This document shows positions 1,853 through 59,596 of a DNA stretch of 64,000 nt, in pieces. The stretch comes from Octopus vulgaris (lineage: Eukaryota), in assembly GCA_951406725.2 (NCBI GenBank), contig OX597822.1, positions 20,026,001 to 20,090,000 on the forward strand, in the 5' to 3' direction. Both the position numbers and the translations under genes were made by a program. The notes below the pieces were generated by a model. That model was given only the letters and a program-made list of their open reading frames with translations. It had not been told where the DNA came from and did no database searches. Position 1 is the stretch's first letter. The number at the start of each line of letters is the position of its first letter.

Positions 1853-2370
1853 ATGAATTTCGCTGCAGCCGTCGGCGGGCGCGAACTCATTGAAATTAAA
1901 ATGGAAGAAATACGGATTGATCATCGACAAAGACGGTGAATCTAGGATAACACCAATAAACGAAATAAAAAATTAAAGAAAAAAAAAGACTATTGTCTAT
2001 AAAGCATACAATATAGAGAAAAAAAAAAGATTTGAACGCCTGGAGGAATGTACTATCGAAAAGTGTCTTGGTGCGACTATGAAAGATATCTAACCAGAGG
2101 CGGTAAATTCGCCACAATAGAAGCAAGGTTCGTGTCAACGGAGCGTGCAAGGGAGTACTCGACTCGAACCTTGCAAAGTGGAAATATTTTATTTTTACCT
2201 TTATATCTGGGACGTAGGACGTCCCGGATAAAAATTAAAAATGCTCCTCCCCCCAGAAGTAGAGGTAGGCTGGATTGTAGCCACACTTCTATACAAGAGG
2301 GAGGACAAGATACAATTGATCGAAATTACAAGAGACGGGCTAACAATTCTAGTCTGTTATATATTTTGAG
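1853..2370 (+). pseudogene. Degraded Tx1/L1-clade ORF1 fragment
   Basis: MNFAAAVGG...RGGKFATIEARF...STRTLQSGNILFLPLYLGRRTSRIKI aligns by eye with the ORF1s at 20081-21391 (RGRKYATVVVHF...LLPGYCGKRAVRIRI) and 25830-26725 (FSDAVGG...STQTLKNENIILLPLYLG). It is frameshifted. Confidence 0.75.
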
Positions 2371-2473
2371 TATTGTTATCACTAGCGATATCAAGGTATA
2401 ACTTTGTATTTTGTATTTTACGTGTAGATGTATATATATAGATGTACATGTAATATGTACACATATATACATG

Positions 2474-2514
2474 CACTAGCACTATGGCCCGGCAACGACG
2501 GGTCTTCAATGCTA

Positions 2515-2515
<1 letters not shown>
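2474..2515 (+). mobile_element. Helitron-type 3' terminus
   Basis: A CCCG-GCAACGA-CGGG hairpin lies about 10 bp before CTAG|T. Confidence 0.55.
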
Positions 2516-2562
<47 letters not shown>

Positions 2563-2854
2563 ACATATGTATATATATGCCCGTGTGTGCTTCTTGCTGC
2601 ATACAAATATGTACACAGTCTCATCTAAGCATATACGTGTACACATAGATATCCAGGATAGCACCAATAACACTCGCGTGCACACACACACACACACACA
2701 CACACATGCATACACACATACACACACACACACGCATACACACACAATCACCAAAGGAAATCGACATCCTCATCGGACCGTGCTTCAAATTTTTTGATAT
2801 ATTATGAGATTTCATTTCAGATTACAGTATATTAATTGTTTATTGCAATTAGCC

Positions 2855-3225
2855 ATGTTACGAAAACCAGAAGCAAAAGAGCTATCTGATTTTCACAGAG
2901 GGCGTATTGAGGGTGGGGGAACAAATTTGAGGGTGAACCTTAACCAGTGTAAGATAGCACAAAACTTTGGAATTCGTCTTGTCACAGTCAAATGCACACA
3001 CTGTGCATTTCACAAGCAAAGAAAAGGAATTAACAACACTCCGTTTAGTTCGACTTGTGTCCTCTGACAGGAGTCTCGCTTGTCAAACGGATTGTTGAAA
3101 GTAATTCCCGTTGTTGGGAAGATTATGTAGCAGAAAAGCTTCAAATGTGTTGAAATGAGTCTGTGAGGTATCTCCATCAACATAGCTACTAGGCAGAAGA
3201 GCTAGAAAGAAACTTCTTTAGTTCC
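2855..3225 (+). pseudogene. Tc1/mariner transposase N-terminal remnant
   Basis: KELSDFHRGRIEG...KIAQNFGI matches the Tc1-type paired HTH start; a later GRRARKK-like motif follows. It contains stops and frameshifts. Confidence 0.6.
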
Positions 3226-3321
3226 TAAAGGAGAAAGGAGAAATAAATCCTTCAAAAATGTCTCTCGTTTTACTTCTGAGATGTCACTGTATCTATGTAT
3301 ATGTATATGTATATATATATA

Positions 3322-3687
3322 GTCACAATGAGGATATTTGAACCTCTTAGAGGGATATTTTTATCCAAGATACACTGATTTAATATATTTATTTTGAAGA
3401 GATATTTCTTCAATGAATATATTAAATAAAATATCGTAAAATATCAACATTGTTATCGAGTTAGAAAACGGAGATCTAATGGATACAAACTAATTTATTA
3501 ATTAATCAATATATTTACCCAGAATTGCTTAATTTCACAAAGTTAAAATTACAAAACACATATAAATACATAATTTTGCATTTTAAATAATTTGTATGGA
3601 AAATCATCAGGGTATATAAAGGACAATAAGGATTACATTAGAATACGTTTGGAATACTCAGAATATATAGGCATGGTATTTAAAATG

Positions 3688-16025: not shown

Positions 16026-16348
16026 TATTATTGTTGTTGTTGATGTTGTTGTTATTTACGTTGTTCTTACTTCGTTTTGTATGAGCTGTTCCAAGTCTCC
16101 TCCAGAGACTCAAGTAACGGCAAGTTCAACATTTTGCTACAGCTGTTATTTATGATTAGCACTGATATATTGAGGGGAAAGGAGACCAGATTCTGAAAAC
16201 CAAAATTCTGTAAAATTTATGATATTTCAATATTCAAAGAATTTTAAAGGGAATCAGGTTCTTCTTCTTCTTCTTCTTCTTCTTCTTCTTCTTCTTCTTC
16301 TTCTTCTTCTTCTTCTTCTTCTTCTTCATGCTGTTGTTGTAATTGTTG

Positions 16349-16448
16349 NNNNNNNNNNNNNNNNNNNNNNNNNNNNNNNNNNNNNNNNNNNNNNNNNNNN
16401 NNNNNNNNNNNNNNNNNNNNNNNNNNNNNNNNNNNNNNNNNNNNNNNN
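16349..16448. other. Assembly gap (100 N)
   Basis: Run of N following a (CTT)n microsatellite. Confidence 1.
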
Positions 16449-17606
16449 AATAGTGTTTTTTTGAGGTCTTGAAGGCGTATTTCTGGTGCATACCCTTTTA
16501 GCTAAACTGAAAGGGATATTTGTCTTGATGTGTTTTGGGTGGCATGAACTAAAGAGGAGGTATTGTTGTGAGTCTGTAGGTTTGTGGTAGATGTCTGTTA
16601 TGATTTGGTTCTCAGGTGTTTTTATAATTAGGAGATCAAGGAATGGGAGATGATGTTTGCTTAATTCCATAGTGAATTGGATGTTGGGATGTATGTTGTT
16701 TAGTGTGGTTTTGAATTCCAGGAGTTTTTCATAAGGTTCTTTCCATATGATGAAACAATCTTCCAAATACCTTTTCCAGTTTTCCAGGTGTGGAAGACAT
16801 GTCCAAATTTCTGGCGTGATATTTCATAGAGTGATAGTTCGAAGAAACCCATTATGAGGTTCGCAAGGACTGGTGCAGCCTTGGTACCCATCGCAATACC
16901 ACATTTTTGACGGTAGTGTGTGTCGTCGAAGAGAAAAAAATTGTTAGTCAGAATGAACTTGAGAGATTCTGTAATAAAAGTCTTGTTAATGCGGTCAGGG
17001 AATGTCTCTGGGTGTTTTTCTAGCCAGAAGTCAATAGCCTCTATACCATATTCATGTGGGATGTTGGTGTAGAGGTCGATGACATCAGAGGATACCAGGA
17101 GCGCCTCCTCGTTAACTGTTTTCGGGAGGTGTTTGAGCATGTCCAGATCATCCCTAATGAAACTTTTGATGTGAGTAAGGAAAGGTTTCAAAAGGATGTC
17201 TAGGAAATTACTCAGGCGGTGTGTTTTACAGGAGGTACCAGCCACGATGGGCCTTAGTTTTAGGTCCTCCGGTGCTTTGATGTTGATGTGGATGTCAGTG
17301 GAGAGTTTGCAGGCTTCGGTGATGTATTTGTTTTTATGGATTTTAGGAAGGCCATAAAAAAGGCTGGGCTTGCATTTGAAATTGGTGATATAATCCCTTT
17401 CTTTTTCTGTGAGTCCCTGACCGTGTTGGCGTATGAGTGTTGTGAGGTTTCTGATTGTTTTTTGCTGTTTATAGTTGTTAATAACCTCATAGAAAATGTT
17501 GTTGTTAAGCATGGAAAGTACTAGGTGTTTATAAAATTCCGTGTCCATAAGGACCACAGCGCTCCCTTTGTCAGCTTCTTTGATGGTAAGGTTTTTATCC
17601 TGTTGT
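16449..17606 (-). mobile_element. Penelope-like element reverse transcriptase, 5'-truncated and frameshifted, running into the gap
   Basis: Motifs IKEADKGSAVVLM, FYGLPKIHK, RPIV, DVIDLYTNIP, QKCGIAMGT, KRYLEDCFIIW (catalytic DD appears as ED), LPFLD and YHKPTDS...HP. Confidence 0.92.
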
Positions 17607-18606
17607 ATGTCACAGAACAAATAAATCTCCCGGAATACCGACAAATTCCACTGAGTGGCCACATAGACTCATGTACTAAAGACTTAAACCCCAAATTCTA
17701 TATATTCCCTTTCTACCAATGTAAAGACGGGATCACCACACAGGAGAGAATTAACAAGGAGAATCTCTTTATTGAAAAATTCCAAACACAACTTAATATG
17801 CAAACTCCTCGTTGATCAAACTTCCTTTTTCTACCTCATTCTTCATGGATGGACTAACACAAATATATAAGGATACCATGCATTCATCACTTCAAGCTAA
17901 AACTTATATTCTTTAAATATCATTTTTACTATTGTTGTTATTACTATCATTTTTATTATATATGATATAGCAATCTGAAATGTAATTGTCTATGCAAATT
18001 TATATAATTAGAAAATAATATAAATAAAGTGTTAAAATCTGAAAGTTAAGTTAACAAACAATTATATAAAAAAGACAATGCAAATGAAGCTAAAATGATA
18101 ATTTTATAATTTGGGGTTTATCAGCAGCCTTTATTGAAGAACTCAAAAGAGTTGTCTCCCCTTATTCACAACACAGGAACTGAAGAACCACAATTACTAC
18201 TACTTCCTGTTTTGCCAACATCCTAAATTAAACCAAACAACACATGGCCTTAATCCCATTGGATCCTAATACCTCAAGGTAATTTTTTCGTGAACAATCA
18301 TTAAACTCAAGATACACAACGAACTCACAATGTATCGGAGTACTTATTTTTTAATTTTTATACATATTTATTATTATTCTTTTGCAAAAAACAATGCAAC
18401 TTTTTTTCCCCTTTCTCATTTTTAAAAAACTTTTTTACCTAACTATTCTTGATAAGTCAAACTATGACGAAAACGGGTTTGAATAAATATATATTTATAT
18501 ATTTTATCAATTTCTCATTTCATTAAAATTTTCTTTCTGCATTTCACAATTTTTCCTTGCTTATCATTTCTCCACGTGCGGTCAACACAACCCCACCATT
18601 TATTGA

Positions 18607-19510: not shown

Positions 19511-19672
19511 ATTAGGGTATTATTGTTTATAACAATATCAGTGATTTAATAATTAAGGGTACTAACAAACAGAACTGGCATGCTAAGTATAGCAGTCAAA
19601 ATGACCAAACCGCAAGTTTTCACTAAAACACAAAGGTGAACACTAACAAATGAATAACAATCCTAAAATCGT

Positions 19673-19902
19673 AAAGTGTACTAGCCATCTCAATGTGGCT
19701 AGCCACTGGGAGTGGGTGTTACTGAAGCTTTTAGCCCCAGGAGATCATCGTCTCCAGCTGGCTTTAGACACACCTTCTGTGCCCTTCTGATATTCGCAAA
19801 GGGAGGTCATCCCCTCTCCAAAACCTAAGTGATACGCACGGACTATAGTTTCGAGGTTTTTGCCTCTCGTCAACGTACGGTAATCACCGGTTTTCGATTG
19901 GA
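19673..19902 (-). mobile_element. Hammerhead-containing short element, downstream half of the copy split by the Tx1 insertions
   Basis: Near-identical reverse complement of ~27225-27454. Confidence 0.9.
19835..19879 (-). ncRNA. Minimal type-I hammerhead ribozyme
   Basis: Minus strand reads CGTACG-TTGACGA-GAGG(CAAAAA)CCTC-GAAAC-TATA-GTC^CGTGCG. It has a palindromic stem III (ACTATAGT) and is a C3U variant. Confidence 0.85.
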
Positions 19903-21507
19903 TTTATCTTTATTATAGGCACTAAGGCCCGAATTAAGAGGGGACATTACAAAACAGGACATGGGGTACATATAATAAAAAAATCGAAAAATATGAAGTG
20001 AAATGAATATTTATAATGGATTAGATGGAACGGATTACGAGCCCCCCAAAACTCGCAGCTTCATTTAAAACACAGTTCTGCTATACTGGTCGTTCATCTG
20101 TCAGGTATTCTATCAACCTCTCCTGATCCACAATAGCTGGCAAAGTGTCATAACGTACATATAACCATTCACATACACTATAATCATCTCTCATTTTCTC
20201 CAATGTCTCTCTCTCCACGATTACCGCCTTCCACTGGTCATCATATATTTCTGGGTTCAACTTTACTCTAATTAAACCTTTCCTACCTGCCAACATCTTT
20301 TCCGTATTTTTGTCCTTGAAATATAACATTACCACTCTGTGTTTCTTTCCTTTGGGTCTTCCTCCTCTCTTACAACCTTTCAACTGCTCTTCCATTCTTC
20401 TGTCCCATTCTTCCTCTGCTGTTAATTTTGCTGGTTCACTTGCTTTTGCTTCGCACGTTCGGTCTTTTCTCTCGTCAGTAATATTGTTTTTCGCTTTTTT
20501 CTTCTTCTTTTTTTGTTCTTTGAGTAGTGATTCCACCCGCGTTCTTTTTCTATTTTCTTTCTCCAACTCTTCACCACTTTCCACATTATCTGTAGTGATG
20601 ATTTCCTCCTCCACACACGTATCTTTCCACTCCTTCGTTAAAGCCTCCAGTGCTATCGTTTTCTCCTGCACTTCTCCCAGCGGACACACATCCTTCATGT
20701 GGCCTCTTATTTTGCAATTGTAACATACTGGGAGTCTCCCCTCCACCACGACTCTAAGACGTGTCTCATCAGGGAACACCAACTTCTCCGGGATGTTGTA
20801 CAGGTCTGGCACGGTTATATGTACCAGAACCTGCACCGTATATCCCCACCACTTTACTTCTGTTGACCTTTCCACCTTCAACACCTCAACGCTTTCCTTG
20901 CAGTTGAAAACCACTGCCGCTAGAATCCTTTCTATATTAAGCTCCGGCGAAATCCTACCGATTCTTATTCTTACTGCCCTCTTTCCGCAGTAACCTGGTA
21001 ATAATGTCCATCTTTCAGATTTCAAAATTTTCGTGGCATTCCTTCTCGCTTCATTTTCATTTTTAAAATGGACAACCACTGTAGCGTATTTTCTTCCTCT
21101 GTTGTAAAAAGTAGGTTCTCCCTCAATTCCCTGCAGATATTTCTCTATTTCCTCCGTCTCTGCCACTTCTATTTTCTTTGAAGTCACGCTCCACGTTCTG
21201 TATGTTATCATACGTTTCTCCGCTTCTGTTGCTTCTTCTTCAGACTTTGTGACTCTCACACAATCACCTTCCTTCTTCAAGCTGTCGAAATATTTTTCCA
21301 AAGTCTCCTTCTCGACTACCACTTCTTCCAGCTCTAGTTCACTCGCAGTCAGGCTTCTGCCTGCCACTCCCGCATACGTCTGGGCTTGCATTTTCGAAAA
21401 ATCTCCAAAAAAATTTCACCACGTCTCAACGGCCTCCACCAACAAACTCGAACTCACAACCTCAACACACCAATAACGCAATCAAAAATTCCGACACAAA
21501 AAAAAAG
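19903..21507 (-). mobile_element. ORF1-only (HAL1-like) non-autonomous Tx1/L1-clade element, ~1.6 kb
   Basis: Bounded by the 15-bp repeat at 21508-21522 and 19888-19902. It has a T-rich 5' UTR, a single ORF and a ~180-bp 3' UTR ending ATAATAAAGATAAA, identical to the neighbouring full LINE's terminus. There is no ORF2. Confidence 0.85.
20081..21391 (-). CDS. Tx1/L1-clade ORF1-like nucleic-acid-binding protein (436 aa) with CCHC zinc knuckle
   Basis: Uninterrupted ORF. It has an N-terminal TYAGVAG and VVVEGRLPVCYNCKIRGHMKDVC (CX2CX4HX4C), and is homologous to VSVEGRRPRCFKCGQKGHVRSVC in the adjacent LINE. Confidence 0.85.
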   Translation of the reverse strand: MQAQTYAGVAGRSLTASELELEEVVVEKETLEKYFDSLKKEGDCVRVTKSEEEATEAEKRMITYRTWSVTSKKIEVAETEEIEKYLQGIEGEPTFYNRGRKYATVVVHFKNENEARRNATKILKSERWTLLPGYCGKRAVRIRIGRISPELNIERILAAVVFNCKESVEVLKVERSTEVKWWGYTVQVLVHITVPDLYNIPEKLVFPDETRLRVVVEGRLPVCYNCKIRGHMKDVCPLGEVQEKTIALEALTKEWKDTCVEEEIITTDNVESGEELEKENRKRTRVESLLKEQKKKKKKAKNNITDERKDRTCEAKASEPAKLTAEEEWDRRMEEQLKGCKRGGRPKGKKHRVVMLYFKDKNTEKMLAGRKGLIRVKLNPEIYDDQWKAVIVERETLEKMRDDYSVCEWLYVRYDTLPAIVDQERLIEYLTDERPV

Positions 21508-21819
21508 CGGTTTTCGATTGGATTTATCTTTATTATGATCAAGTGATCTAACATAGAATTGGGACATTACAGGACAAAACAATTACAAAAATGCTATGCG
21601 AGTTCGAATGAAATTATAAAAATTACAAAAATAAAATTTTATGTAACTCGAACGAAAACTTGGCTTACTTTTGCCTTTATCACGAGAACGTATGTTTTCT
21701 TTTTTTTATTATTATTTCTTTATTTTAAACAGTTATGTACAGTGAAAGGGAATGGGAGGTACAAGTTTCAATTTTGAACCCGGCAGCCTATAAATCCCAG
21801 CAGCTGATTTTTCCTTTCC

Positions 21820-24800
21820 TCGATGATTAAGCTGGGTTACTCTCACCCACCTTTCTCATCACATCCTTCCAACGTTCCATATACTCTTTCTGTGGCAGGC
21901 TCCTCTTCTCCAACCCCATCTTGCTCTTCAGATGATATCCGAAGTATTTTAACAAACCCGGGCCAGAGATAAAGGACCCTTTCACAAGACCTTCCAATCT
22001 AGTTCTCCATACACACTCTTTTCAATACTGCCACCGTAGAGTAAAAACAAGCCTTACCTTCCTTTGAAGAGTCCAGTTGGCGGTATCATCTTAATCATAG
22101 ATCCAGCCGACAGCTGTACTCGTCCCAGATGCGACAACACGTGTTCAACGTAACTTATCAAGCCTGACAGCTCCCGACATTGTACAAAAGCGTGTTGAAC
22201 GGTTTCATCGTCCAACCCACATCTTGGACACGTCGGTGGCACTGACATTCCGTGCCAGGATGACTTCTCGCGAACAGGTAATGCATTCCTATAGCACTGT
22301 CAGGTCAGGGATTTTTGGTAATTATCCAAATACCCCGACCTGAAAGTCTTCTTAAACAGGTTGGAGAGTTGATCTTCATCGAACCCCAAAGCCCTTCCTA
22401 GGACGTCGTCATTTCCTTCTACCAGCCCTTTATAGAACACCGAGGTGGTATTCCCGCTGCCGGCCTTGCCCATCTTGTGGATCAGCCAGAGTGGCTGTCG
22501 GCACTCCTTCTGCCATGAAGTCAGGTTACGTCCTTTAATGAGACCGGGTGTAAATCCCTCCATAGAGGCCGGTCGCGGGAAGGATTCCTCTGCCAGCGAA
22601 CTCCACACCTTATCATCCTCCAGGTAACACCAGGTGTCTCAGCCACAACGCATGCTTGCGCATCATTAGCCAAGGCATCCCCAGTCCACCCGTTAGCTGT
22701 TCCTGGCAACACACGGAGCGTCTCACAAGTGGCTTTCCTCCTTTCCACAAAAAGCGGAAAAGGAGTCGTTCCAATTTGTTTAACCACGAATCGGGGCAAG
22801 GCACGACGGTCAGGTGGTAGGTGACGACAGAGGCTATAAACAGCTGTGCCACCTCCGCCCTCCCTTTCAAGGAAAGATGCCTTCCGGACCACTTCCGTAC
22901 TATGGCATCCACCTTGCTCGTTACCTCGCTCCAATTCTTCTCCGTCTGGGAGTCTGGACCAAACCAGACTCTGAGCAATTTAACAGGACCATCCGTCCAG
23001 TGTCCAACAACACTGGACGGTATCGGCTTGTTCCTCCAGGTGCCGAGGCGCAAACCGATGGACTTGTCCCTGTTAACTTTTGCCCCTGCCACCGCTTCGT
23101 ATCTATGGAGAGCACCTGCTACCCGAGGTAGCTGTGTTCCGTTGGACACGATGAGGGTGACGTCATCCGCATAGGCAGAAATAGACTTACCGCATCCGAT
23201 TTCATTAGGGTTGCGTCCCAACTTCTCCAGCTTCCGCAGCAATGGCTCAAGAGCCAAAACATACAGGAGCGGGGACAAGGGGCACCCTTGACGAACTGAA
23301 CGCTTGATCGAAAACGGCTCCGTTAGGTAACCGTTTATCTGGACTGTGGACTTGATGCCGCTGTACATAGCTGAGATCCACCCGCAGAAGCCAGAGCCCA
23401 GCCCAGCCGCTTCGAGGACCGCCGCCAAGTACCGATGGTCTACCCGATCAAACGCTTTACTTTGGTCTAAATGGACCAATGCCCCTCCTTTGCCGTCTAA
23501 TTTCCCGACCCTATCTATAGTGTAGCGGAGAAGGTGAAGATTATCCTGGATCGACCTGCCTGGGATTGCACATGTCTGTGCCTTCCCGACAAGTTTCTCC
23601 ACGACAGCCGTCAGCCTTTTTGCTAACACCTTGGCCAAAATCTTAAACTTTACATTAAGTAGAGTTATGGGCCTATAATTACTAATACTGTCCCCCTTGC
23701 TCAGGTCTTTCTGGACAAGCGTCACAACTCCCCGACTCACAGAGCTGGGAATCCTCCCATTCTGTTGCCAGTTTGCATAGACGCTTGCCAGTATGTCCCC
23801 GAACAAGTCCGGCATACAACAATAAAATTCATAGGGCAGACCATCCAACCCCGACGACTTTTCCCCGGCGCACATAACCCCTCTTACCTCCGCGGGAGAG
23901 ATCGATCCTTCACAGCACTCCGCCTCACCTGCCGAGAGCCGAGGCCCACCAGCTAGGAAGCCCTTTAAGGTCTCCCTACGCTCGAGCGGACCACCGTCCC
24001 CAAACAGCCGTGCGAAATGCTGGTGAAGGACCTTCTGCATCTCCTCCTGTCCATAGATCTTGCGGTCCTGCTCGTCAGTTAAGGACATAATACAGGACTT
24101 TTTGCCCTTCTGACTCTCCTCACGATGGGCCCATCCAGCAACGTTAATACCTTCTCGTAACTTAGCTCTGACTCTACACCCCTCGTGCTTGGCGTTGAGG
24201 TGACGGTACAATACCGCTCTCGCTGCCAACACTCCGGATGCACAGCCAGATTCCATAGCCTCGTCTAAGTTCTTAACTAATTCGCCCTCTATTCTAGTCC
24301 TATCTAAACTTAGCGGCTTGCTAAATCTAATGGACTCCAAACAGATGGCTCTTTTGAGGGCGAGCCACCATCTATTATTAATTATGGTGCCACATAATGC
24401 CCTCTGTACTAATTCCTTAATCCGGGTACGGAAAGCTTCACAAGTCAAAATAGACTTGTTCATTTTCCAGTACTCGGAACCTTGTCTATGGCATTTATCT
24501 ACCTGTACCTCACACGTCACAAGTTTGTGATCTATGTAAGGCACAACAGAGAATTGTGGACAGCTAACACTATTCCTATCTCGTTCCTTAACAAATACTC
24601 TATCTATGTACGATCTGCGTGAGCCGTCGTTATTACTCCACGTCCACTGTGGAACGTTCGGCTCATCCAGTCGAAAACGGTTTACTAGATTAAAGCTCGC
24701 TAGTAGAGCCTTGAGGCCAGGATTCCCCTTCCTATCGCTCGAGCCTACACCATCCACCTGCGCATCGAGAATGGTGTTGAAATCCCCTACCAAGACTACC

Positions 24801-25194
24801 GTTTTGGACGTCACTAGAAAGTGCTCCAGTTCCCGAAAAAACCGGTCTGCCCACGTCCATTAGGAGCGTAGACAGCCACCAACCTGAAGGACTGCTTACT
24901 CACGTGCGTCACATCTAGGATAACCAGCCTACCTTCTGGGTCCAGAAAGACAGTACTTACCTGTAAGTCCAAGTTCTTCCTGAAAAGAACTGCCACGCCT
25001 GCACCTCCCTCCCGGCTAGGAGAAATAAATTTCTCGTAACCATTGAGAAGTGGTGAGAACGCTTGGGGTCCTTTCATCTTGGACTCGGTAACAATAGCTA
25101 CATCGATTCTATGTGAAATGAGGTCGTCCCGAAAACAAGCCTGTTTCCATTTCGACCCCATTCCACGCACATTTATACAACCTAACTTAATCAT
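21820..25194 (-). pseudogene. ORF2: AP endonuclease, reverse transcriptase and C-terminal zinc finger (frameshift ~24814, disruptions from ~22610)
   Basis: INVRG, VYAPN, GDFN, IDR, DHK (APE); SGLDGL, YRPITLLN, LDQSKAFDRV, VRQGCPLSP, YADD (RT); CPRC...ETVQHAFVQC. The L.L.GR...LF.FLW...GGLG motifs are typical of L1/Tx1. Confidence 0.93.
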
Positions 25195-25208
25195 CGAAAA
25201 AAAGAAAA

Positions 25209-26725
25209 TTATTTACTCACGGTTGCGAGAGGGAGCCTGACAGATTCCTTCTGCCTGTCTCCCCCCACACTCGCCGTTGCTGCTGGGCGTTTCACCGGCG
25301 TTGCCACCGGGCCCTGGGTTGGTGTGGCTGCCGGGCTGACGTATAATTTCCCAGTTGTCACCTTCTGGGTGACATCCTTACTGAAGCCGGCTTTTACGTG
25401 GTCTTGTAAGTTTTTTTCTTTCCATCCTTCTTCGCCGACCCTTGCATATCGCCACTCCGCTTCCTTTTCGGTCGCTTTGTAGCAACTGATCTGCGTACTT
25501 GCTTGCACAAATTTTACTACTCTCTCGTCCCTTGTGGTGTATGCTATACATTTTTCATTGGGTTTAAACCCTTTTACAGTTGGGGGGTGGGGTTTGTTAG
25601 AGTGCTGGCCTATAAATGTAGTATCGCCGGGGTGGGATTGGAGGATATTTTTAATTTGTTCGTCTGCGTTGTTTTTTTTTTTGTTACGGATGGGGAGTCA
25701 GGGGTGATGGATTTTTTTCTTTTGTTCGGCACGTTCGTGAATTCCATCTCTTCTTGTATATTTGTTTTTGTTGTATTAATTTCCTCCTTTCCTTTCTCAT
25801 TTTGCATTCCGTTCTTGTCTTCCTCCTTTTTAGAGTTCGACCTGTTTTTTTTTTTCCTCCTTGCTTTCGCCAGTCGTTACTTTGTTCTCCACTTTGCTGC
25901 TTTCTGCGTTCTTCACAGCGTTTTGAGGGGGGGGGGGGGCGTTGCCCGTATTATTTTTCTTTGTGCAAACGGAGCGAACGTGGCCCTTTTGCCCGCACTT
26001 AAAACATCTGGGCCTGCGTCCTTCCACCGAAACTCGTATGGAGTGCCCCTCCCCCACGAAGACTCTGTCTGGTAGGCTTTCCAGCGTCGCATTTTCCGCC
26101 TGGATAATCATCTCCAGCTGCTGGCCTCTCCAGTGTTTTGCTATTTTCCTCTTCATACTAAAAATTGTCAATTTTGATTCAACATCAAAAATGACCGCTG
26201 TTGCCGCCCACATCACGTCGTAGCCCCTTGGTATATCTTCCAGTGTCACTTTTGCTATTCTGCACCCCAAATATAAGGGTAGTAGTATTATGTTCTCGTT
26301 TTTCAACGTTTGCGTCGAAATTTGCCTTGCTTCTTCCGCCGCCTCGAAATGCGCCTCCACTGTAGCGCTTCTTGCACCTCGGTTGACATGACGAACTTTG
26401 CTTCATATTGGTGCCATACACTTTTCGACCATTTCGTTTTTTACGTCGGTCATTCGTTTTTCTTTTATATTGTACACCTTATAGGTGACCATTTTTTCCC
26501 TTATTGCCTCGGTACCAATCGTTTTTCTTCACCACTTTTTTGCACAAGCGGTCTGAACTTAAATAGTCTTTCCATTGACACCTCAATTTCTTCCACTTCG
26601 CCACCTACGGCGTCTGAAAAACTGGGTTTTGCCTGTGTTTCCGTTTGTTTAACAGTTGTTGTACTTTCTCCCATCTCGGGAAAGTCTTTTTTTGAACTTA
26701 AGTCTAATTTCATATTAGACAACAC
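25209..26725 (-). pseudogene. ORF1 (CCHC knuckle), frameshifted
   Basis: ORF pieces 26501-26725, 25830-26360 (CFKCGQKGHVRSVC), 25610-25807 and 25209-25508. At least one break lies near a homopolymer run. Confidence 0.85.
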
Positions 26726-27067
26726 AAACTTGTCACAAATGACAAGGGAATTTTTTTCAAAAATAACCTATACAGGTTAAGAGTTCACACAAAAAAAACA
26801 CACACACACACAGAAATATTTCTACACCGAAGGGCGAAAATTACTGGGTCAAAAACAGTTCAACAAGTATTATACGTGTAACACAACAAAGTAGACAAAC
26901 GGAAACGAACTCACACAACGATTTGCAGCAACAGAAAAATATTTGATATACTCCGAGGAAAAATTCAAAAAGCGGCGGTTTTCGATTGGAGAGACCTGTT
27001 TGCGAATATTTATTTAATGTTTTTCCCAGCAACCACTGTCACTGATTTCGAAAAACTGTCTGAAAGC

Positions 27068-27207
27068 ATTAATAAATCTCCGAACGAGATGTAAACAGTA
27101 ACCACTCGACAACATAAAGTGTACTAGCCATCTCAATGTGGCTAGCCACAGTGGGTGGGTGTTACTGAAGCTTTTAGCCCCAGGAGATCATCGTCTCCAG
27201 CTGGCTT
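27068..27207 (-). mobile_element. 3' 140 bp of the hammerhead-containing element, inverted relative to 27208-27500
   Basis: Reverse complement of ~27362-27500 with a few mismatches. Confidence 0.9.
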
Positions 27208-27500
27208 ATTCGCAAACAGGTCTCTCCAATCGAAAACCGGTGATTACCGTACGTTGACGAGAGGCAAAAACCTCGAAACTATAGTCCGTGCGTATCACTT
27301 AGGTTTTCGAGAGGGGATGACCTCCCATTGCGAATATCAGAAGGGCACAGAAAGTGTGTCTAAAGCCAGCTGGAGACGATGATCTCCTGGGGCTAAAAGC
27401 TTCAGTAACACCCACTCCCAGTGGCTAGCCACATTGAGATGGCTAGTATACTTTACGTTGTCGAGCGGTTACTGTTTACATCTCGTTCGGAGATTTATTA
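27208..27500 (+). mobile_element. Uninterrupted copy of the hammerhead-containing element (empty Tx1 target)
   Basis: ATTCGCAAACAGGTCTC-TCCAATCGAAAACCG-GTGATTACCG joins exactly the two flanks of the Tx1 block (26991-27007 and 19673-19887, minus strand). Confidence 0.9.
27248..27292 (+). ncRNA. Minimal type-I hammerhead ribozyme (predicted cleavage after 27286)
   Basis: CGTACG-TTGACGA-GAGG(CAAAAA)CCTC-GAAAC-TATA-GTC^CGTGCG. It sits at the tip of a long stem: 27230-27238 pairs with 27302-27310, and 27207-27215 with 27328-27336. Confidence 0.85.
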
Positions 27501-27676
27501 ATCCTAAAATCGTTTTTTATTTTGTATATTTTCATTTGTCTTGCTCATTTTTACATTTTGGCGTTTTGCTGAATTATTTTTCTTGAGAATACGCTCTTCG
27601 TGGTAATGGCGATTTGACGTCTATATTTAGCATATTAGGAGTCCACTTTAGTGGTCATTCCTCTCAATTTTGTATG

Positions 27677-33273: not shown

Positions 33274-33913
33274 TATATTGCACATATCATTCCATTGTTA
33301 CATGCATATAGAAACTCACGAATTACACCCGCAGAGACCCGCGTTTATGCATATAATCAAAATAACAACAACAAATCATACACATATACGCTGGCACATA
33401 TAAAATGCACACACGTCTTTTTAATTTGGTGGAGTTAAATTCTACACAATGAATTTCCTAGTGTGAGAAGCAGGCTTTAAAGGGACGACAGAAATGACCA
33501 TGACTCAGAGTGATTTAAGAAAGCTCTTATAATGATATTCAGTGCCATACGTTTGGAATCCCCGGTGGATTCCAATCCTTGTATTGTTAATTTTAGTTAT
33601 TTTAGTTTTAATTTAGAGTCAAACAGATTCAACATTTGCTGAAAAGCAAATGAGATTATTTTGAGTTCTTAAGAATTCTAATCACTTACCCAATGTTCTT
33701 CAGAATTTGCTTTCTAATATTAGTAAGCCATCATGCACGAATGGGGCTACGTTTAATACTGCGTTTTGCAAAGAAATTTCTCAGATAAAATCCAGCTTAT
33801 AGTCGACCTTATTATTTCAAGGTATAGAAATAGACCAAAGATTTTCTGGTTTAATTGAACATACGACGGAAAATGTCAAGATTAACATAACTAGAAAATT
33901 CTTAATTGAGTGC

Positions 33914-34013
33914 AATAATAAATCTCTGAACGAGATGTAAACAGTAACTGCTCGACAACGTAAAGTATACTAGCCATCTCAACATGGCTAACCACTAAGG
34001 GTGGGTGTTACTG
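33914..34013 (-). mobile_element. Isolated, more diverged 3' fragment of the hammerhead-containing element
   Basis: AATAAATCTCTGAACGAGATGTAAACAGTAAC...GGGTGGGTGTTACTG matches ~27071-27167. Confidence 0.85.
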
Positions 34014-36959
34014 TATTTGAGTAATTGAGTGTCTTTTTACTATCCTAAAAGGATTAGATACCATAAATTAATATTTTCCCACTTTTCTATGGGATGTAGA
34101 TATCACAAGAGCTTTAACAGAGGGACACATAAAGGTAATTATTATTCAGAAGCAGTGTTTTCTTTTTTAAATACTTTAATTTTAAAAAAGGCTCTTCAAC
34201 TCTAAGAATTTTACTGCACTTCTGACATGTAATTGCATTTGTCACAGCAACTGTTCTTTTCATAGAAATTGTCTCGCTAAAGGGATAACTTACAGTACGA
34301 GAGGCCAAATTTACTATAATTCCTTGTAGAGTATATAATCTAGATTGACGGAAAAGACTGCATAAGAATTCTTTTAAGACATCTGGAAGAAAGGTCGTCC
34401 ATGTCAGCCCATACAAATATGATTCCCACCAGTAGTCTATATGTGTGTGTGATGTGGTTAAGTGAGATATTGCTCATTTCATACCAAGAACCTTATGCTT
34501 TCAACTCGAATTATTGAAATATTGGATCTTAACAGCTAATTTCATCGACTATCTTTTTTTTTATCAACCACAACTTCTCTAGACTATATTTTGACTGTTT
34601 ACAATTTCTTTAAGTGAGAAAAACCTATAAACTTTTTCATTATAGTTACCCACCCGTGTTGGTCAACTCATTGACAGTAAGTACAATATTTGCGTCATTT
34701 TTCGTAACAATCATATTCATCAATCAAAACGATACTTTTGTTTCAAGTTTTGCGGATAGATTTCGCCCAATAAATATTCGCGTTGATTTTTAAATATATT
34801 CTACATTTGCCTTTAAATATTTTCCAAATGGTCCATTCCTTTTTAATATCGTCCGAAGATCAACGTCAAATAAAATACAACTCTACTTTTAAGATTGAGT
34901 ACAGTTTTTACTTTTTCTTGCTCACATTTATCTGCTCGCATACATACATACATACATACATACATACAAACATACATACATACAAACATACATACATAAA
35001 TACATACATACATACATATATACATACATACGTACATACGTACATACATACATACATACATCACAGTCACACATACATGTAAAGTAACTCGTATAAATAA
35101 TATACATTCATACATACCAAACAAAGACACTAACTCACACAGAGTACATAATATATACTCATAAAAAATCATATAAATACAGACACATATACACATGTAC
35201 ACGCACAAAACGATTGATACACACATACAGAAAGTGAATAAAAACAAACACAGACATACATATACATCCATGTTCACAGACATTATCACAAAGTAGCAAG
35301 ACACACGATTTCCTTTCTGCTCCTTACTCCACCATGCATAGAAGAAAATACAAGAAAATTCTCAGACACAATATAAGTCATAGAACTTACCAAAATGATT
35401 CAACATCACAGACTGTGTAAGAATCTAGTCTAACTGACACAAAACACCCATTATCGAAAGTAGACCGAAATTAGCAGCACTGCTTCTATATTTCAAAGAG
35501 CAACAACATTCTTAAGATACATTGATAACAAAACAATTGATTTAGAGAACTTTCTCATTTCTCCGAAAACTCTTTATTGTTTTGGAGAAAACACGTTTTC
35601 TAAAACTTCATTAAAGTAACTTTTAGTTATTTAGTTGATTGTGATTTTCGACTGTCTAGGTAGGTGTGTAGGCAGGTATGTAGGTAGGTGGGTAGGTAGG
35701 TAGATAAGTATGTGGTAGGGTGAGGTAAGTATAGAGTGTAAGTTGAAAACTTTGGCAGGTAGGTAAGATAGAGTAGATAGATAGGTAGGGTAGTATGGTG
35801 AGCTGTTAGGCGGGTATGTAGAATGTAAATGGGTTGGTGGGAAAGGTAAGGTAGAGAGGTGATTATGTTGGGAAGTGCTTAATGTATGCATGTAAATAGT
35901 AGACAAGTAGGTGGTTATGTTTATAGAAAGGGAGGTAGACAAGGTAGATTAATAGGTAACTAGCTAGCTATATATGTACATATTAATGTATGTATGCGTG
36001 TATGTATGAATGTATGTTGACCGCAGCTAAGGAGCTGCACTGGACGGCACTGTCCCATCCTATTCAATGGTTCACCATCAGATTTACAGTGATACATCTT
36101 AGCATTATTACAAATTAATGCCACCCAGAATATTTTGAAGCACTTCCAGGCACCAAAATATGGCGACGAGCCTGTATTTTTGTATGTGTGTATGTATGTA
36201 TGTATGTATGTATGTATGTATGTATGTATGTATGTATGTATGTATGTATGTATGTATGTATGTATGAATGAATATAAGTATGAATGTATGTATAAGCGTT
36301 TGGTTTATTTCTAAATTTATCAGCATACTTACGTATGTTTACACATTCATATGTTCGCGTGTCTATTAGAAACTAAACTTTATGAATCAAGCCATAATCT
36401 TCTGATTAGAAATGTCCTTTTTGGTTATGTGAATTCTAGCTTCTCATAATTAGAAGATGAGGAAGTTAGTCTCGTAGTAAAGCACTCCCATAATTGTCGG
36501 CACAAATCTGAAGTTACACTCTGGATTAATTAGCGACAAATTTCTCATCAGCTTTGCATAGATACTTTCATTTTTTGTTTTACTTTCCTTTAACACTATG
36601 TTCACATCTTCTGGGCAGCAGATTTATATGTTATAGTTTTGATTTTTCAATTCTTCTTTAGCTACTTCAATATATATTTTTTCATTTGCTTTTATCGATG
36701 ATGTTTTCCTCCGATTACCTGTTAATGTTGACATCATTTTCAGTCATTTTGTTTCTGGAAGATCCATGCATGTGAAACAAATATCACCACGGTTTTTACT
36801 AAATGATTACGTCAGCTAATATAATCAGAAGAATAACCAGCTAATTAACGTGACTGGTAGTTGGAGACGTATTCATCGAATATACAATGAAGTATCCTTT
36901 GTCATGAATGCAACTGCTCTAGTCGAGTCTCTTGATATATATATATATAGATAAGAAAG

Positions 36960-56880: not shown

Positions 56881-59596
56881 AACAATTGCAGCGTGGGAGG
56901 TGTTTATAAGCCATTTAAGAAACACACAAAAGCCGTTCGATTCACTCCAACATTTAAGTTTAATTTGTCAAAATATTTTCGTCGCTAAAATCCGCGACCT
57001 GTTCACTGACAAAGTCCGTGCTGCATCTAAGAAAGTAACAGTTAGTTCGTCATATATATGTATGTACGTATGTATGTGTGTATGTATGCATACATGTGTG
57101 TATGTATGTACATATTCATGTCCGCACATACGCCTGTGTATGCATGTATGTATGTATGTATGTATGTATGTATGTATGTATGTATATATGTATGTGTGTG
57201 TATAAGCACGCACATACACTCTATAAAACATAAAGTTATAAACCTGTAGCGATGGATGGATGTAGAGTGACCACTCATCACAACGCTATCAAATTTCAAC
57301 TCCCTACGGCCGAGGCTAGAAAGTGAATTTATGACGCTTGCTCACAAGAACTATACCCTAAAATCTATTATCAGATTTTTATCTCTATATCACAGAACTA
57401 ATGTTTTACTATTGTTCGTATGTATGTATGTATGTGCGTATGTATGTATGTGCGTATGTATGTATGTATGTATGTATGTATGTATGTATGTATGTATGTA
57501 TGTATGTATGTATGTATGTATGTACATACGTACGCATGTGCGTATGTATGTATACGCGCCCGTATGCATGTGCCCATGTATGTGTGTGTGTACATGTACG
57601 TGCGTATGTACGTGTGTATGCCCATACGTAGGTATGTATGTATGTTTGTATTCATGTGCTACGTATGTATGTGAGTGTCTAGGAGAATGGGCAGATGTGT
57701 CCGTGAGAGTGTGTACATGTGTATGTGTATGTGAACGTATGTCCGTGTACTGGCATGTGTCCGTCCAAGTTGTGTACATGACTGTTACTTAGCTGAAGGT
57801 TGTATACATATTTACATATATGTTTGTATAGACGCACACATATATATATATATATGTGTGTGGGTGTGTGTTTGTTCCTCTCATCGTCGTCTAACCGTGA
57901 ATGGGTACAACGCCTAGGTGCAACTGTTCGTATCAAACAACGTCTGCTCATACCGTTGTATATAACTGCACATACGCATTGCAACCTGTATGTAAGGACT
58001 ACAGGTGAAAGGGAGAGAGAGAGAGGGGTGGTTATAGAATAGTCCTTCTGAATGGGATCTGGATGTTATTCCATTCGGACTTTCGGTTGAGAGTAGGTTT
58101 GTATTCTTGTATACAAACAGCTTCTGTGACCTGTCTCAACATTGCATCGGTGGGATGTGTAGATAGGATGTTCAACTTAAGCTCCCTAAGGATCCCTTGT
58201 GGCAGTCTACAGCATGTTGGTAGAAGATGGAGTTTGGCTTCCTTTCAATGTAGTTGTCCATTGAAAGGAAGCCAAACTCCATCTTCTACCAACATGCTGT
58301 AGACTGCCACAAGGGATCCTTAGGGGAGCTTAAGTTGAACATCCTATCTACACATCCCACCGATGCAATGTTGAGACAGGTCACAGAAGCTGTTTGTATA
58401 CAAGAATACAAACCTACTCTCAACCGAAAGTCCGAATGGAATAACATCCAGATCCCATTCAGAAGGACTATTCTATAACCACCCTCTCTCTCTCTCCCTT
58501 TCACCTGTAGTCCTTACATACAGGTTGCAATGCGTATGTGCAGTTATATACAACGGTATGAGCAGACGTTGTTTGATACGAACAGTTGCACCTAGGCGTT
58601 GTACCCATTCACGGTTAGACGACGATGAGAGGAACAAACACACACCCACACACATATATATATATATATGTGTGCGTCTATACAAACATATATGTAAATA
58701 TGTATACAACCTTCAGCTAAGTAACAGTCATGTACACAACTTGGACGGACACATGCCAGTACACGGACATACGTTCACATACACATACACATGTACACAC
58801 TCTCACGGACACATCTGCCCATTCTCCTAGACACTCACATACATACGTAGCACATGAATACAAACATACATACATACCTACGTATGGGCATACACACGTA
58901 CATACGCACGTACATGTACACACACACATACATGGGCACATGCATACGGGCGCGTATACATACATACGCACATGCGTACGTATGTACATACATACATACA
59001 TACATACATACATACATACATACGCACATACATACATACGCACATACATACATACATACGAACAATAGTAAAACATTAGTTCTGTGATATAGAGATAAAA
59101 ATCTGATAATAGATTTTAGGGTATAGTTCTTGTGAGCAAGCGTCATAAATTCACTTTCTAGCCTCGGCCGTAGGGAGTTGAAATTTGATAGCGTTGTGAT
59201 GAGTGGTCACTCTACATCCATCCATCGCTACAGGTTTATAACTTTATGTTTTATAGAGTGTATGTGCGTGCTTATACACACACATACATATATACATACA
59301 TACATACATACATACATACATACATACATACATGCATACACAGGCGTATGTGCGGACATGAATATGTACATACATACACACATGTATGCATACATACACA
59401 CATACATACGTACATACATATATATGACGAACTAACTGTTACTTTCTTAGATGCAGCACGGACTTTGTCAGTGAACAGGTCGCGGATTTTAGCGACGAAA
59501 ATATTTTGACAAATTAAACTTAAATGTTGGAGTGAATCGAACGGCTTTTGTGTGTTTCTTAAATGGCTTATAAACACCTCCCACGCTGCAATTGTT
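56881..59596. repeat. 2.7-kb near-perfect palindrome made of two head-to-head PLE 3' ends
   Basis: Arms are 56881-58250 and 58259-59596 with the 8-nt spacer TAGTTGTC. The centre encodes QHAVDCH...RQVTEAVCI...LNRKSEW (GIY-YIG-like C-terminus). Only the right arm has a ~57-bp extension before (TA)n. Confidence 0.9.

Follow-up and report, generated by a model that had tools for sequence, protein, structure and literature searches.

A 64,000-nt stretch of the Octopus vulgaris genome (contig OX597822.1, positions 20,026,001–20,090,000 of the forward strand; hereafter, the window) contains two retroelements, A and B, inserted head to tail into a single unit of a small repeat that carries a hammerhead ribozyme, and the same 15-bp sequence flanks and separates them. 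What do such elements recognize? The window and the 2.8 Gb of genome searched make it fairly probable that a clade of Tx1-type long interspersed nuclear elements (LINEs) inserts at the start sites of genes with a proximal sequence element (PSE) promoter, mainly those of retrozymes of approximately 350–390 nt.

Specificity of LINE insertion for a retrozyme site

In the window, the 15-mer is found three times on the minus strand and once on the plus strand (Table 1); shuffled sequences gave 0.06 matches at two or fewer mismatches. The minus-strand copies delimit A and then B, and excision of both elements restores the empty sequence: the joined flanks match 27207–27457, within the adjacent inverted copy of the repeat, at 247 of 251 bases. 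Between the target and the hammerhead, 8 nt remain to the proximal strand of stem I and 14 nt to the core. This layout, which a preliminary description of the window had read as two LINEs at one site beside a ribozyme, was reproduced throughout. The term "two LINEs" holds for A, which has two open reading frames (ORFs), but not for B, which has ORF1 alone and no ORF2. Both elements terminate in ATAATAAAGATAAA and lack poly(A).

The site specificity proposed from the window alone holds across the genome, and the flanks of other copies, tabulated after a genome-wide search with the termini, are not unrelated. The exact 15-mer has 22 genomic matches, comprising 8 LINE junctions, 11 empty targets, and 3 unrelated sequences. 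As an exact pattern, the 3′ end of A was found at 31 loci, where it adjoins the retrozyme site in 22 cases, lies in U2 small nuclear RNA (snRNA) genes in 5, and lies elsewhere in 4 (hand count). The reversed pattern returned 6 rows as a control, and three of the four off-target loci are absent from the BLAST-scored A ends and are at control level. Among 39 fetched A-like loci, 25 have a hammerhead, 4 have the target duplication only, 5 lie in U2, and 4 are of other kinds; the remaining one has an interrupted 3′ end and was miscalled by the script. The sister family D ends on the target in 51 of 51 loci (hand count; control, 0), and its ends also occur in retrozymes of family Z. For B-type ends, the counts of which rest on pattern searches and hand reading, a strict hammerhead core is located 12–42 nt downstream in 53 of 106 forward matches (control, 0; chance, 0.6%), and the reverse strand contributes 52 more with a strict core. 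The 60 B-type loci listed comprise 39 with a hammerhead, 6 with a partial or tandem target, and 15 with unrelated flanks. From these locus counts, the target choice of A and D is strict, and that of B-type ends is looser. One off-target A-like end (L151) is followed by a stem with the words GATGA, GAAAC, and GTC, and this stem may represent a decayed hammerhead from a different family.

Full-length copies of A have retrozyme sequence on both sides, with 15–18-bp duplications equal to the local target variant. All insertions are in the sense orientation, upstream of the hammerhead core. Both element orders exist (A–B in the window and B–A on C4), and 5′-truncated copies (L113 and L145) occupy the same site. 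The duplicated sequence was also considered as the LINE's own terminus, which was rejected because, on either side of the element, it varies according to the target variant; the two orders and the truncated copies agree with this. It is very improbable that a single old insertion multiplied along with the retrozyme or through segmental duplication. A few pairs are indeed duplications (L142/L143), but the junctions refute this as a general explanation: the target variants differ on both sides of each copy, the order of A and B varies, truncated copies are found at the site, and at least five families with different ends, as well as U2 targets, are involved. In two places an inverted retrozyme has an insertion in each of its arms; the result is head-to-head A copies in one (L131 and L134, on C4) and two tail-to-tail D ends in the other (C2, near 109.084 Mb).

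Insertion position, snRNA genes, and possible mechanisms

At least four RZ1 variants are targeted, as are the families X, Y, and Z, the site sequences of which are unlike that of RZ1. Since the duplication follows the local variant, the target is a position and not the 15-mer. The preliminary description had placed the target correctly within the hammerhead element but had equated it with the exact 15-mer, and the latter does not stand, as dissimilar hammerhead families share the register. We infer that this position is the transcription start of the target. Relative to this +1, the duplication spans approximately −4..0 to +11..+14. In all distinct U1 flanks (19/19), ATCAGT begins 57–59 nt before +1; AT[CT]AGT is located at −57 to −61 in 28 of 30 U2 flanks, both exceptions being LINE-filled. 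Empty RZ1 units that reach that far have ATCAGT 60–61 nt before ATCG. A promoter matrix trained only on nine U1/U2 promoter types gave its best match at a distance of 54–58 nt upstream of the duplication for 18 of 20 retrozyme sites, and of 56 for both U2 sites (2/2); one of the two exceptional retrozyme sites has a 9-nt deletion, and in the other the motif is second best. Retrozymes appear to carry a candidate PSE at the snRNA spacing, about −60, weakly so in family X. The inverted empty copy in the window begins 18 nt before the target and therefore lacks the PSE-like motif. At the U2 loci L172–L201, at least four U2 and three U1 promoter types were distinguished, and the only element common to them is the ATCAGT core at −57 to −61.

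U2 genes hold five A copies; the four genes concerned are spread over two chromosomes and have two U2 promoter types. Their 3′ junction is at nt −3, and the duplication covers U2 −3 to +14. In all four full-length U2 copies (4/4), a 14-nt retrozyme leader is located between the U2 duplication and the element. This leader is identical at 13 of 14 positions to +1 to +14 of one retrozyme subfamily and starts exactly at ATCG. The simplest reading is that the parent of these copies sat in a retrozyme and that its RNA started at that A. The U2 copies are 99.2–99.6% identical to young retrozyme copies and, barring private changes, have the same endonuclease; near-identical endonucleases serve three different 15-mers. 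In addition, one related 3′ end abuts U1 +1 (control, 0) and is 82% like an autonomous-type end at the family X target in L141.

Several observations weigh against insertion at PSE-driven start sites. About a quarter of the B-type ends have unrelated flanks (15 of the 60 listed; 5 of 20), and TTYATC is found at the start of several off-target sites, a sign of plain sequence preference. The matrix scores of family X (2.6–3.5 bits) do not reach the 95% background (6.3), a motif first spotted by eye served to anchor the matrix, and the 20 retrozyme sites scored were chosen by the authors. Family C uses a second register, joining about 5–10 nt further downstream with a duplication that ends at the hammerhead core, and tandem arrays reuse duplications that have no PSE directly upstream. 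The U1 case is a single one, and its 5′ junction was not found at the predicted 496-bp location. Reuse of PSE-less duplications is also suggested by a tandem pair in U2, where L138, downstream, looks younger than L137, upstream (0 against 8–9 private differences), though weakly, as assembly errors are likely.

It is quite possible that, following the classical logic of Tx1 elements, the endonuclease of each autonomous subfamily reads 10–15 bp of retrozyme sequence. U2 and U1 would then be look-alikes (ATCG and ATAC), and the link to the start site would arise since only copies located there are transcribed, which would select the enzyme. The Tx1L endonuclease recognizes about 10 bp (PMC1919474). 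Lineages of A track target families, with Z and Y copies branching apart from RZ1 copies, and this explanation also accommodates the TTYATC shared by off-target sites and the reuse of PSE-less downstream duplications. It is harder to reconcile with one nearly constant endonuclease at three 15-mers, with D ends in family Z as well, and with a U1 site unlike the others. Moreover, 24 of the 73 listed matches to a loose 15-mer consensus, a third, are decoys other than retrozymes (hand count; the consensus was defined post hoc), and not one decoy is used by the 27 on-target A ends.

The spacing of 54–58 nt, constant across dissimilar targets, together with the U2 and U1 insertions, raises the alternative that ORF1p or ORF2p binds a PSE-bound complex (SNAPc or the RNA polymerase II (Pol II) pre-initiation complex), with the nick made about 56 nt away. 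ORF1 is under purifying selection even in the non-autonomous B, and the interaction of TRE5-A ORF1 with TFIIIB at tRNA genes provides a precedent (PMC5911963). Such tethering nevertheless seems rather doubtful, given the second register of family C, the reused duplications without a PSE, a single-base precision that resembles an enzyme site, and the single entry into U1 among 42 listed U1 genes. The broader proposal that snRNA-type promoters in general are what the clade homes to, through tethering to the initiation complex on the PSE and with retrozymes as a stepping stone, is likewise put forward tentatively; tethering of this kind, if true, would let one enzyme serve unrelated retrozymes, U2, and U1.

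Exploitation of the hammerhead itself was also considered. The downstream hammerhead might cut read-through LINE RNA, leaving a target-derived 3′ tail of ~60 nt that guides priming, as the sense orientation of every insertion upstream of the core and the family C duplications ending exactly at the core would suggest. This is unlikely: U2 and U1 have no ribozyme, all families end at AATAAA plus a few bases, and hammerheads with a minimal helix III work better as dimers (PMC7229834). The hammerhead is probably a neighbor of the start site and not the feature recognized; the ribozyme may take part in processing LINE RNA, but this is not required, as the U2 and U1 targets lack one.

In the preferred reading, insertion at PSE-driven start sites, the LINEs probably borrow the snRNA-type promoter common to their targets. 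The retrozyme would be transcribed from the PSE-like motif, starting at ATCG or its equivalent. The LINE would have no promoter of its own and would be driven by that of the target, so that its RNA would start with 11–14 nt of target and would end about 6–10 nt past AATAAA, at or inside the downstream duplication. The APE domain may nick near a TTYATC-like sequence, and the element would insert by target-primed reverse transcription, in the sense orientation. An open start site or a bound factor, together with pairing of the target-derived RNA ends, could sharpen the specificity. The target-derived 5′ leader would anneal at the top-strand cut; on a first jump into U2 it could not do so and would be left behind as a relic. 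The downstream target copy would retain the coding part and lose the promoter.

The target repeat, the LINE families, and the layout of the window

The target has a unit period of 357 nt (L024 and L113) and no coding capacity, and it occurs in short direct tandems (L093, L094, L128, L131, and L145), no longer arrays being seen. An inverted part is present in 18 of 30 fetched retrozyme loci, that is, 5′ inversions are frequent. The first genome search for the retrozyme gave 2408 candidates, 40 of which were scored. The window hammerhead has the core UUGACGA / GAAA / GUC, a GAGG–CCUC stem II, and a palindromic helix III, CUAUAG. An Rfam scan detected no hammerhead in the window at the gathering score or at E values up to 10. 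Pairing was examined in 34 distinct cores behind LINE ends, chosen without a pairing filter and counted with motifs as anchors. Stem I is 89% paired, compared with 64% for shuffled partners (maximum, 75%), figures that are not a probability because the core rows are related. Pairs in stem I are swapped between families (G–C/A–U and C–G/G–C), and helix III is palindromic in 31 of the 34 cores, with 7 different palindromes. On this comparative evidence, the window hammerhead is judged to be real, though minimal. A tandem unit of ~350 nt, no ORF, and a type I hammerhead fit the type of retrozyme that lacks long terminal repeats (non-LTR), for which self-cleavage and circular RNA are predicted. 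Four sets of assembled contigs compared with the region were uninformative about RNA starts, ends, and cleavage. Hammerheads of family C have a C–A mismatch at the base of stem II. At L305 (C1), a tandem array with a 1.38-kb period consists of the retrozyme unit, an antisense reverse transcriptase (RT) fragment, and a CA microsatellite.

Non-LTR retrozymes have been derived from Penelope elements in a 2026 preprint (bioRxiv 10.64898/2026.07.22.740005). Among the loci fetched by then, a Penelope RT probe matched only L142, L143, L167, L171, and itself. In L167 (oriented 1900–3450), a Penelope ORF truncated where its endonuclease begins is directly joined to a family X unit, possibly by a template switch; no RZ1 unit was found beside a Penelope ORF in the loci fetched.

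Element A contains two ORFs, and its ORF2, with APE and RT domains and a C-terminal zinc finger, is naturally open over 1134 aa in the copies L123 and L132. The RT belongs to the L1 group: its best solved match is human L1 ORF2p (E 1e-58), compared with 1e-22 for R2. An ORF1 model (pLDDT 64) weakly matches tandem-RRM proteins (E about 3e-4), a CCHC knuckle is present, and the profile match to fish ORF1 is confined to this knuckle. RRM domains with a CCHC knuckle are characteristic of Tx1 ORF1. In a quick RT tree of 40 rows, 2 of which were discarded for their shortness, A belongs to a group of 23 rows (SH-aLRT 92) with elements from fish, frog, and lancelet, which we take to be Tx1, apart from plant and fungal L1s; six of the relatives carry ZCCHC3-type RNA-binding domains. 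Target specificity with 10–20-bp duplications, a Tx1 feature, is found in A and D. Because the tree contained no named Tx1 or vertebrate L1 reference, membership of the A–D–F clade in Tx1 is likely rather than proven.

The autonomous families are A, D, and F, with D about 82% identical to A over ORF2; B and C are ORF1-only dependents. B has ORF1 alone, termini in common with an autonomous partner, and independent insertions. Its ORF1 is 28% identical to that of A over 204 aa (the open A copy L136 was used), and its dN/dS is about 0.2 between subfamilies and 0.5–0.76 inside one subfamily, so ORF1 would be needed in cis for something. Family C is about 1.7 kb long, and its autonomous partner was not found. 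Further ORF1-only families are represented by L222, L223, and L224. For distant metagenome relatives, Rfam found no RNA family in 20 of 80 loci and a word scan of all 80 for hammerhead and snRNA sequences returned nothing, results uninformative on the clade because these loci are 20–38% identical and many are truncated.

Table 1. Coordinates of the nested insertion in the window.
Feature	Position	Strand	Remark
Retrozyme insertion boundary, left 13-bp duplication	19659–19671		duplication enclosing the whole insertion
Interrupted retrozyme unit, downstream part	19672–19887	−	98% match with the empty copy
Minimal type I hammerhead core up to GUC	19841–19873	−	predicted cut after 19841
Target duplication, downstream copy	19888–19902	−	15-mer match
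Element B, ORF1-only non-autonomous LINE derivative, 1605 bp	19903–21507	−	3′ end ATAATAAAGATAAA, without poly(A)
Element B intact ORF1, 436 aa	20081–21391	−	two RRM-like folds and one CCHC knuckle
Target duplication, middle copy	21508–21522	−	15-mer match
Element A, two-ORF LINE, 5453 bp, full-length but decayed	21523–26975	−	
Element A ORF2 (APE endonuclease, RT, zinc finger)	21827–25194	−	frameshifts and stops
Element A ORF1 (CCHC), broken	25209–26674	−	
Target duplication, upstream copy	26976–26990	−	putative +1, A at 26986
Interrupted retrozyme unit, upstream part	26991–27207	−	
PSE-like motif AAATCAGTGACAGT	27035–27048	−	ATCAGT begins 60 nt before the putative +1
Empty retrozyme copy, inverted	27207–27500	+	target 27225–27239; hammerhead core 27254–27286
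Retrozyme insertion boundary, right 13-bp duplication	27500–27512		pairs with 19659–19671

Elsewhere in the window, a lone 104-bp piece of the same retrozyme lies at 33912–34015 (minus strand), without the hammerhead. A Penelope-type RT fragment is located at 16326–17668 (minus strand), with an inverted plus-strand piece at 17525–17815 that resembles a GIY-YIG end and an assembly gap of Ns at about 16350–16450. The Penelope label is based on a weak RVT_1 match and on a DKG motif. The fragment was rejected as the retrozyme's partner, since no similarity to the retrozyme unit was seen. An inverted repeat at 56881–59596, 98–100% complementary and nearly a perfect palindrome around 58250, is either a fold-back or an assembly artefact.

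Comparison with known elements

The finding bears on how target-specific LINEs change targets and on why lineages converge on snRNA genes. The switch from retrozyme to U2 is recent (99%+), leaves a relic, and involves no visible change of the endonuclease, and it is therefore directly testable. If homing to promoters is true, retrozymes are a stepping stone by which Tx1 elements gain snRNA genes as targets, and a target switch in progress is recorded in the U2 copies that have a retrozyme leader. The position also points to the promoter of mollusc-type retrozymes, described as highly expressed without a mapped promoter, and ties this promoter to that of newt satellite 2. Genome-engineering groups may also take an interest in a compact APE retrotransposon able to write into a start site driven by a PSE.

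Tx1 elements that target other transposable elements are already known, including Tx1L (into Tx1D of Xenopus), Tx1-Mar, Tx1-9_AMi, and Tx1-8_Crp, and the targets described comprise DNA transposons, LTR elements, microsatellites, U2, U5, 5S, and satellites (Kojima 2015, PMC4494074). Like the Tx1L group, the elements reported here are APE-type LINEs that are specific for another transposable element and form tandem arrays, and non-autonomous partners use the same target; transcription from the flanking target was proposed there for SINEU (PMC4494074). Unlike that group, their target is a hammerhead retroelement and the site its probable start, although the "Sat" targets in Fig. 3 of that paper might be hammerhead satellites, and the partners are ORF1-only elements instead of SINEs. 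It is the hammerhead retroelement target and the putative start site that appear to be new. The literature covered, to which Repbase, Dfam, and subscription journals did not belong, gave no hammerhead retroelement target, PSE start-site insertion, or U2 +1 site. A 2026 paper on Octopus vulgaris repeats lists active L1-Tx1 families, and in its available portion the terms hammerhead, ribozyme, retrozyme, and snRNA do not occur.

Non-LTR retrozymes consist of 150–450-bp tandem units without an ORF, each with a type I hammerhead (PMC7229834). The target resembles them and newt satellite 2 in its ~350-nt tandem unit, type I hammerhead, absence of an ORF, and low GC content (PMC7229834). It differs from described retrozymes in a Penelope-like minimal hammerhead with U3/C4/A8 variants, in the frequency of 5′ inversions (18/30 loci), and in its role as a LINE landing site, which is unmentioned in the available portions of the retrozyme papers under the terms searched. 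For newt satellite 2, the first animal hammerhead repeat, an snRNA-type promoter has been reported (PMC2220036); the PSE-like motif of the target would be its counterpart.

TRE5-A of Dictyostelium is likewise an APE LINE at a fixed distance from a promoter complex in which ORF1 matters (PMC5911963). Tethering has been shown for TRE5-A and is a proposal from sequence here; moreover, TRE5-A inserts at Pol III genes, antisense, 44–54 bp upstream, over a range of positions (PMC5911963). HAL1 (half-L1) is a non-autonomous L1 derivative that codes only for ORF1 (PMC5753468), and B is, similarly, an ORF1-only non-autonomous derivative of an L1-group element. Unlike HAL1, B is target-specific, and its RRM-RRM-CCHC ORF1 is just 28% identical to that of its partner. 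Finally, Keno and Utopia share with A the insertion into U2 snRNA genes, sometimes in tandem (PMC4640811). Their 3′ flank begins at U2 nt 39 (PMC4640811), whereas the A junction is at nt −3, and the U2 site is therefore another one; for A, unlike Keno and Utopia, U2 is a minor and recently acquired target.

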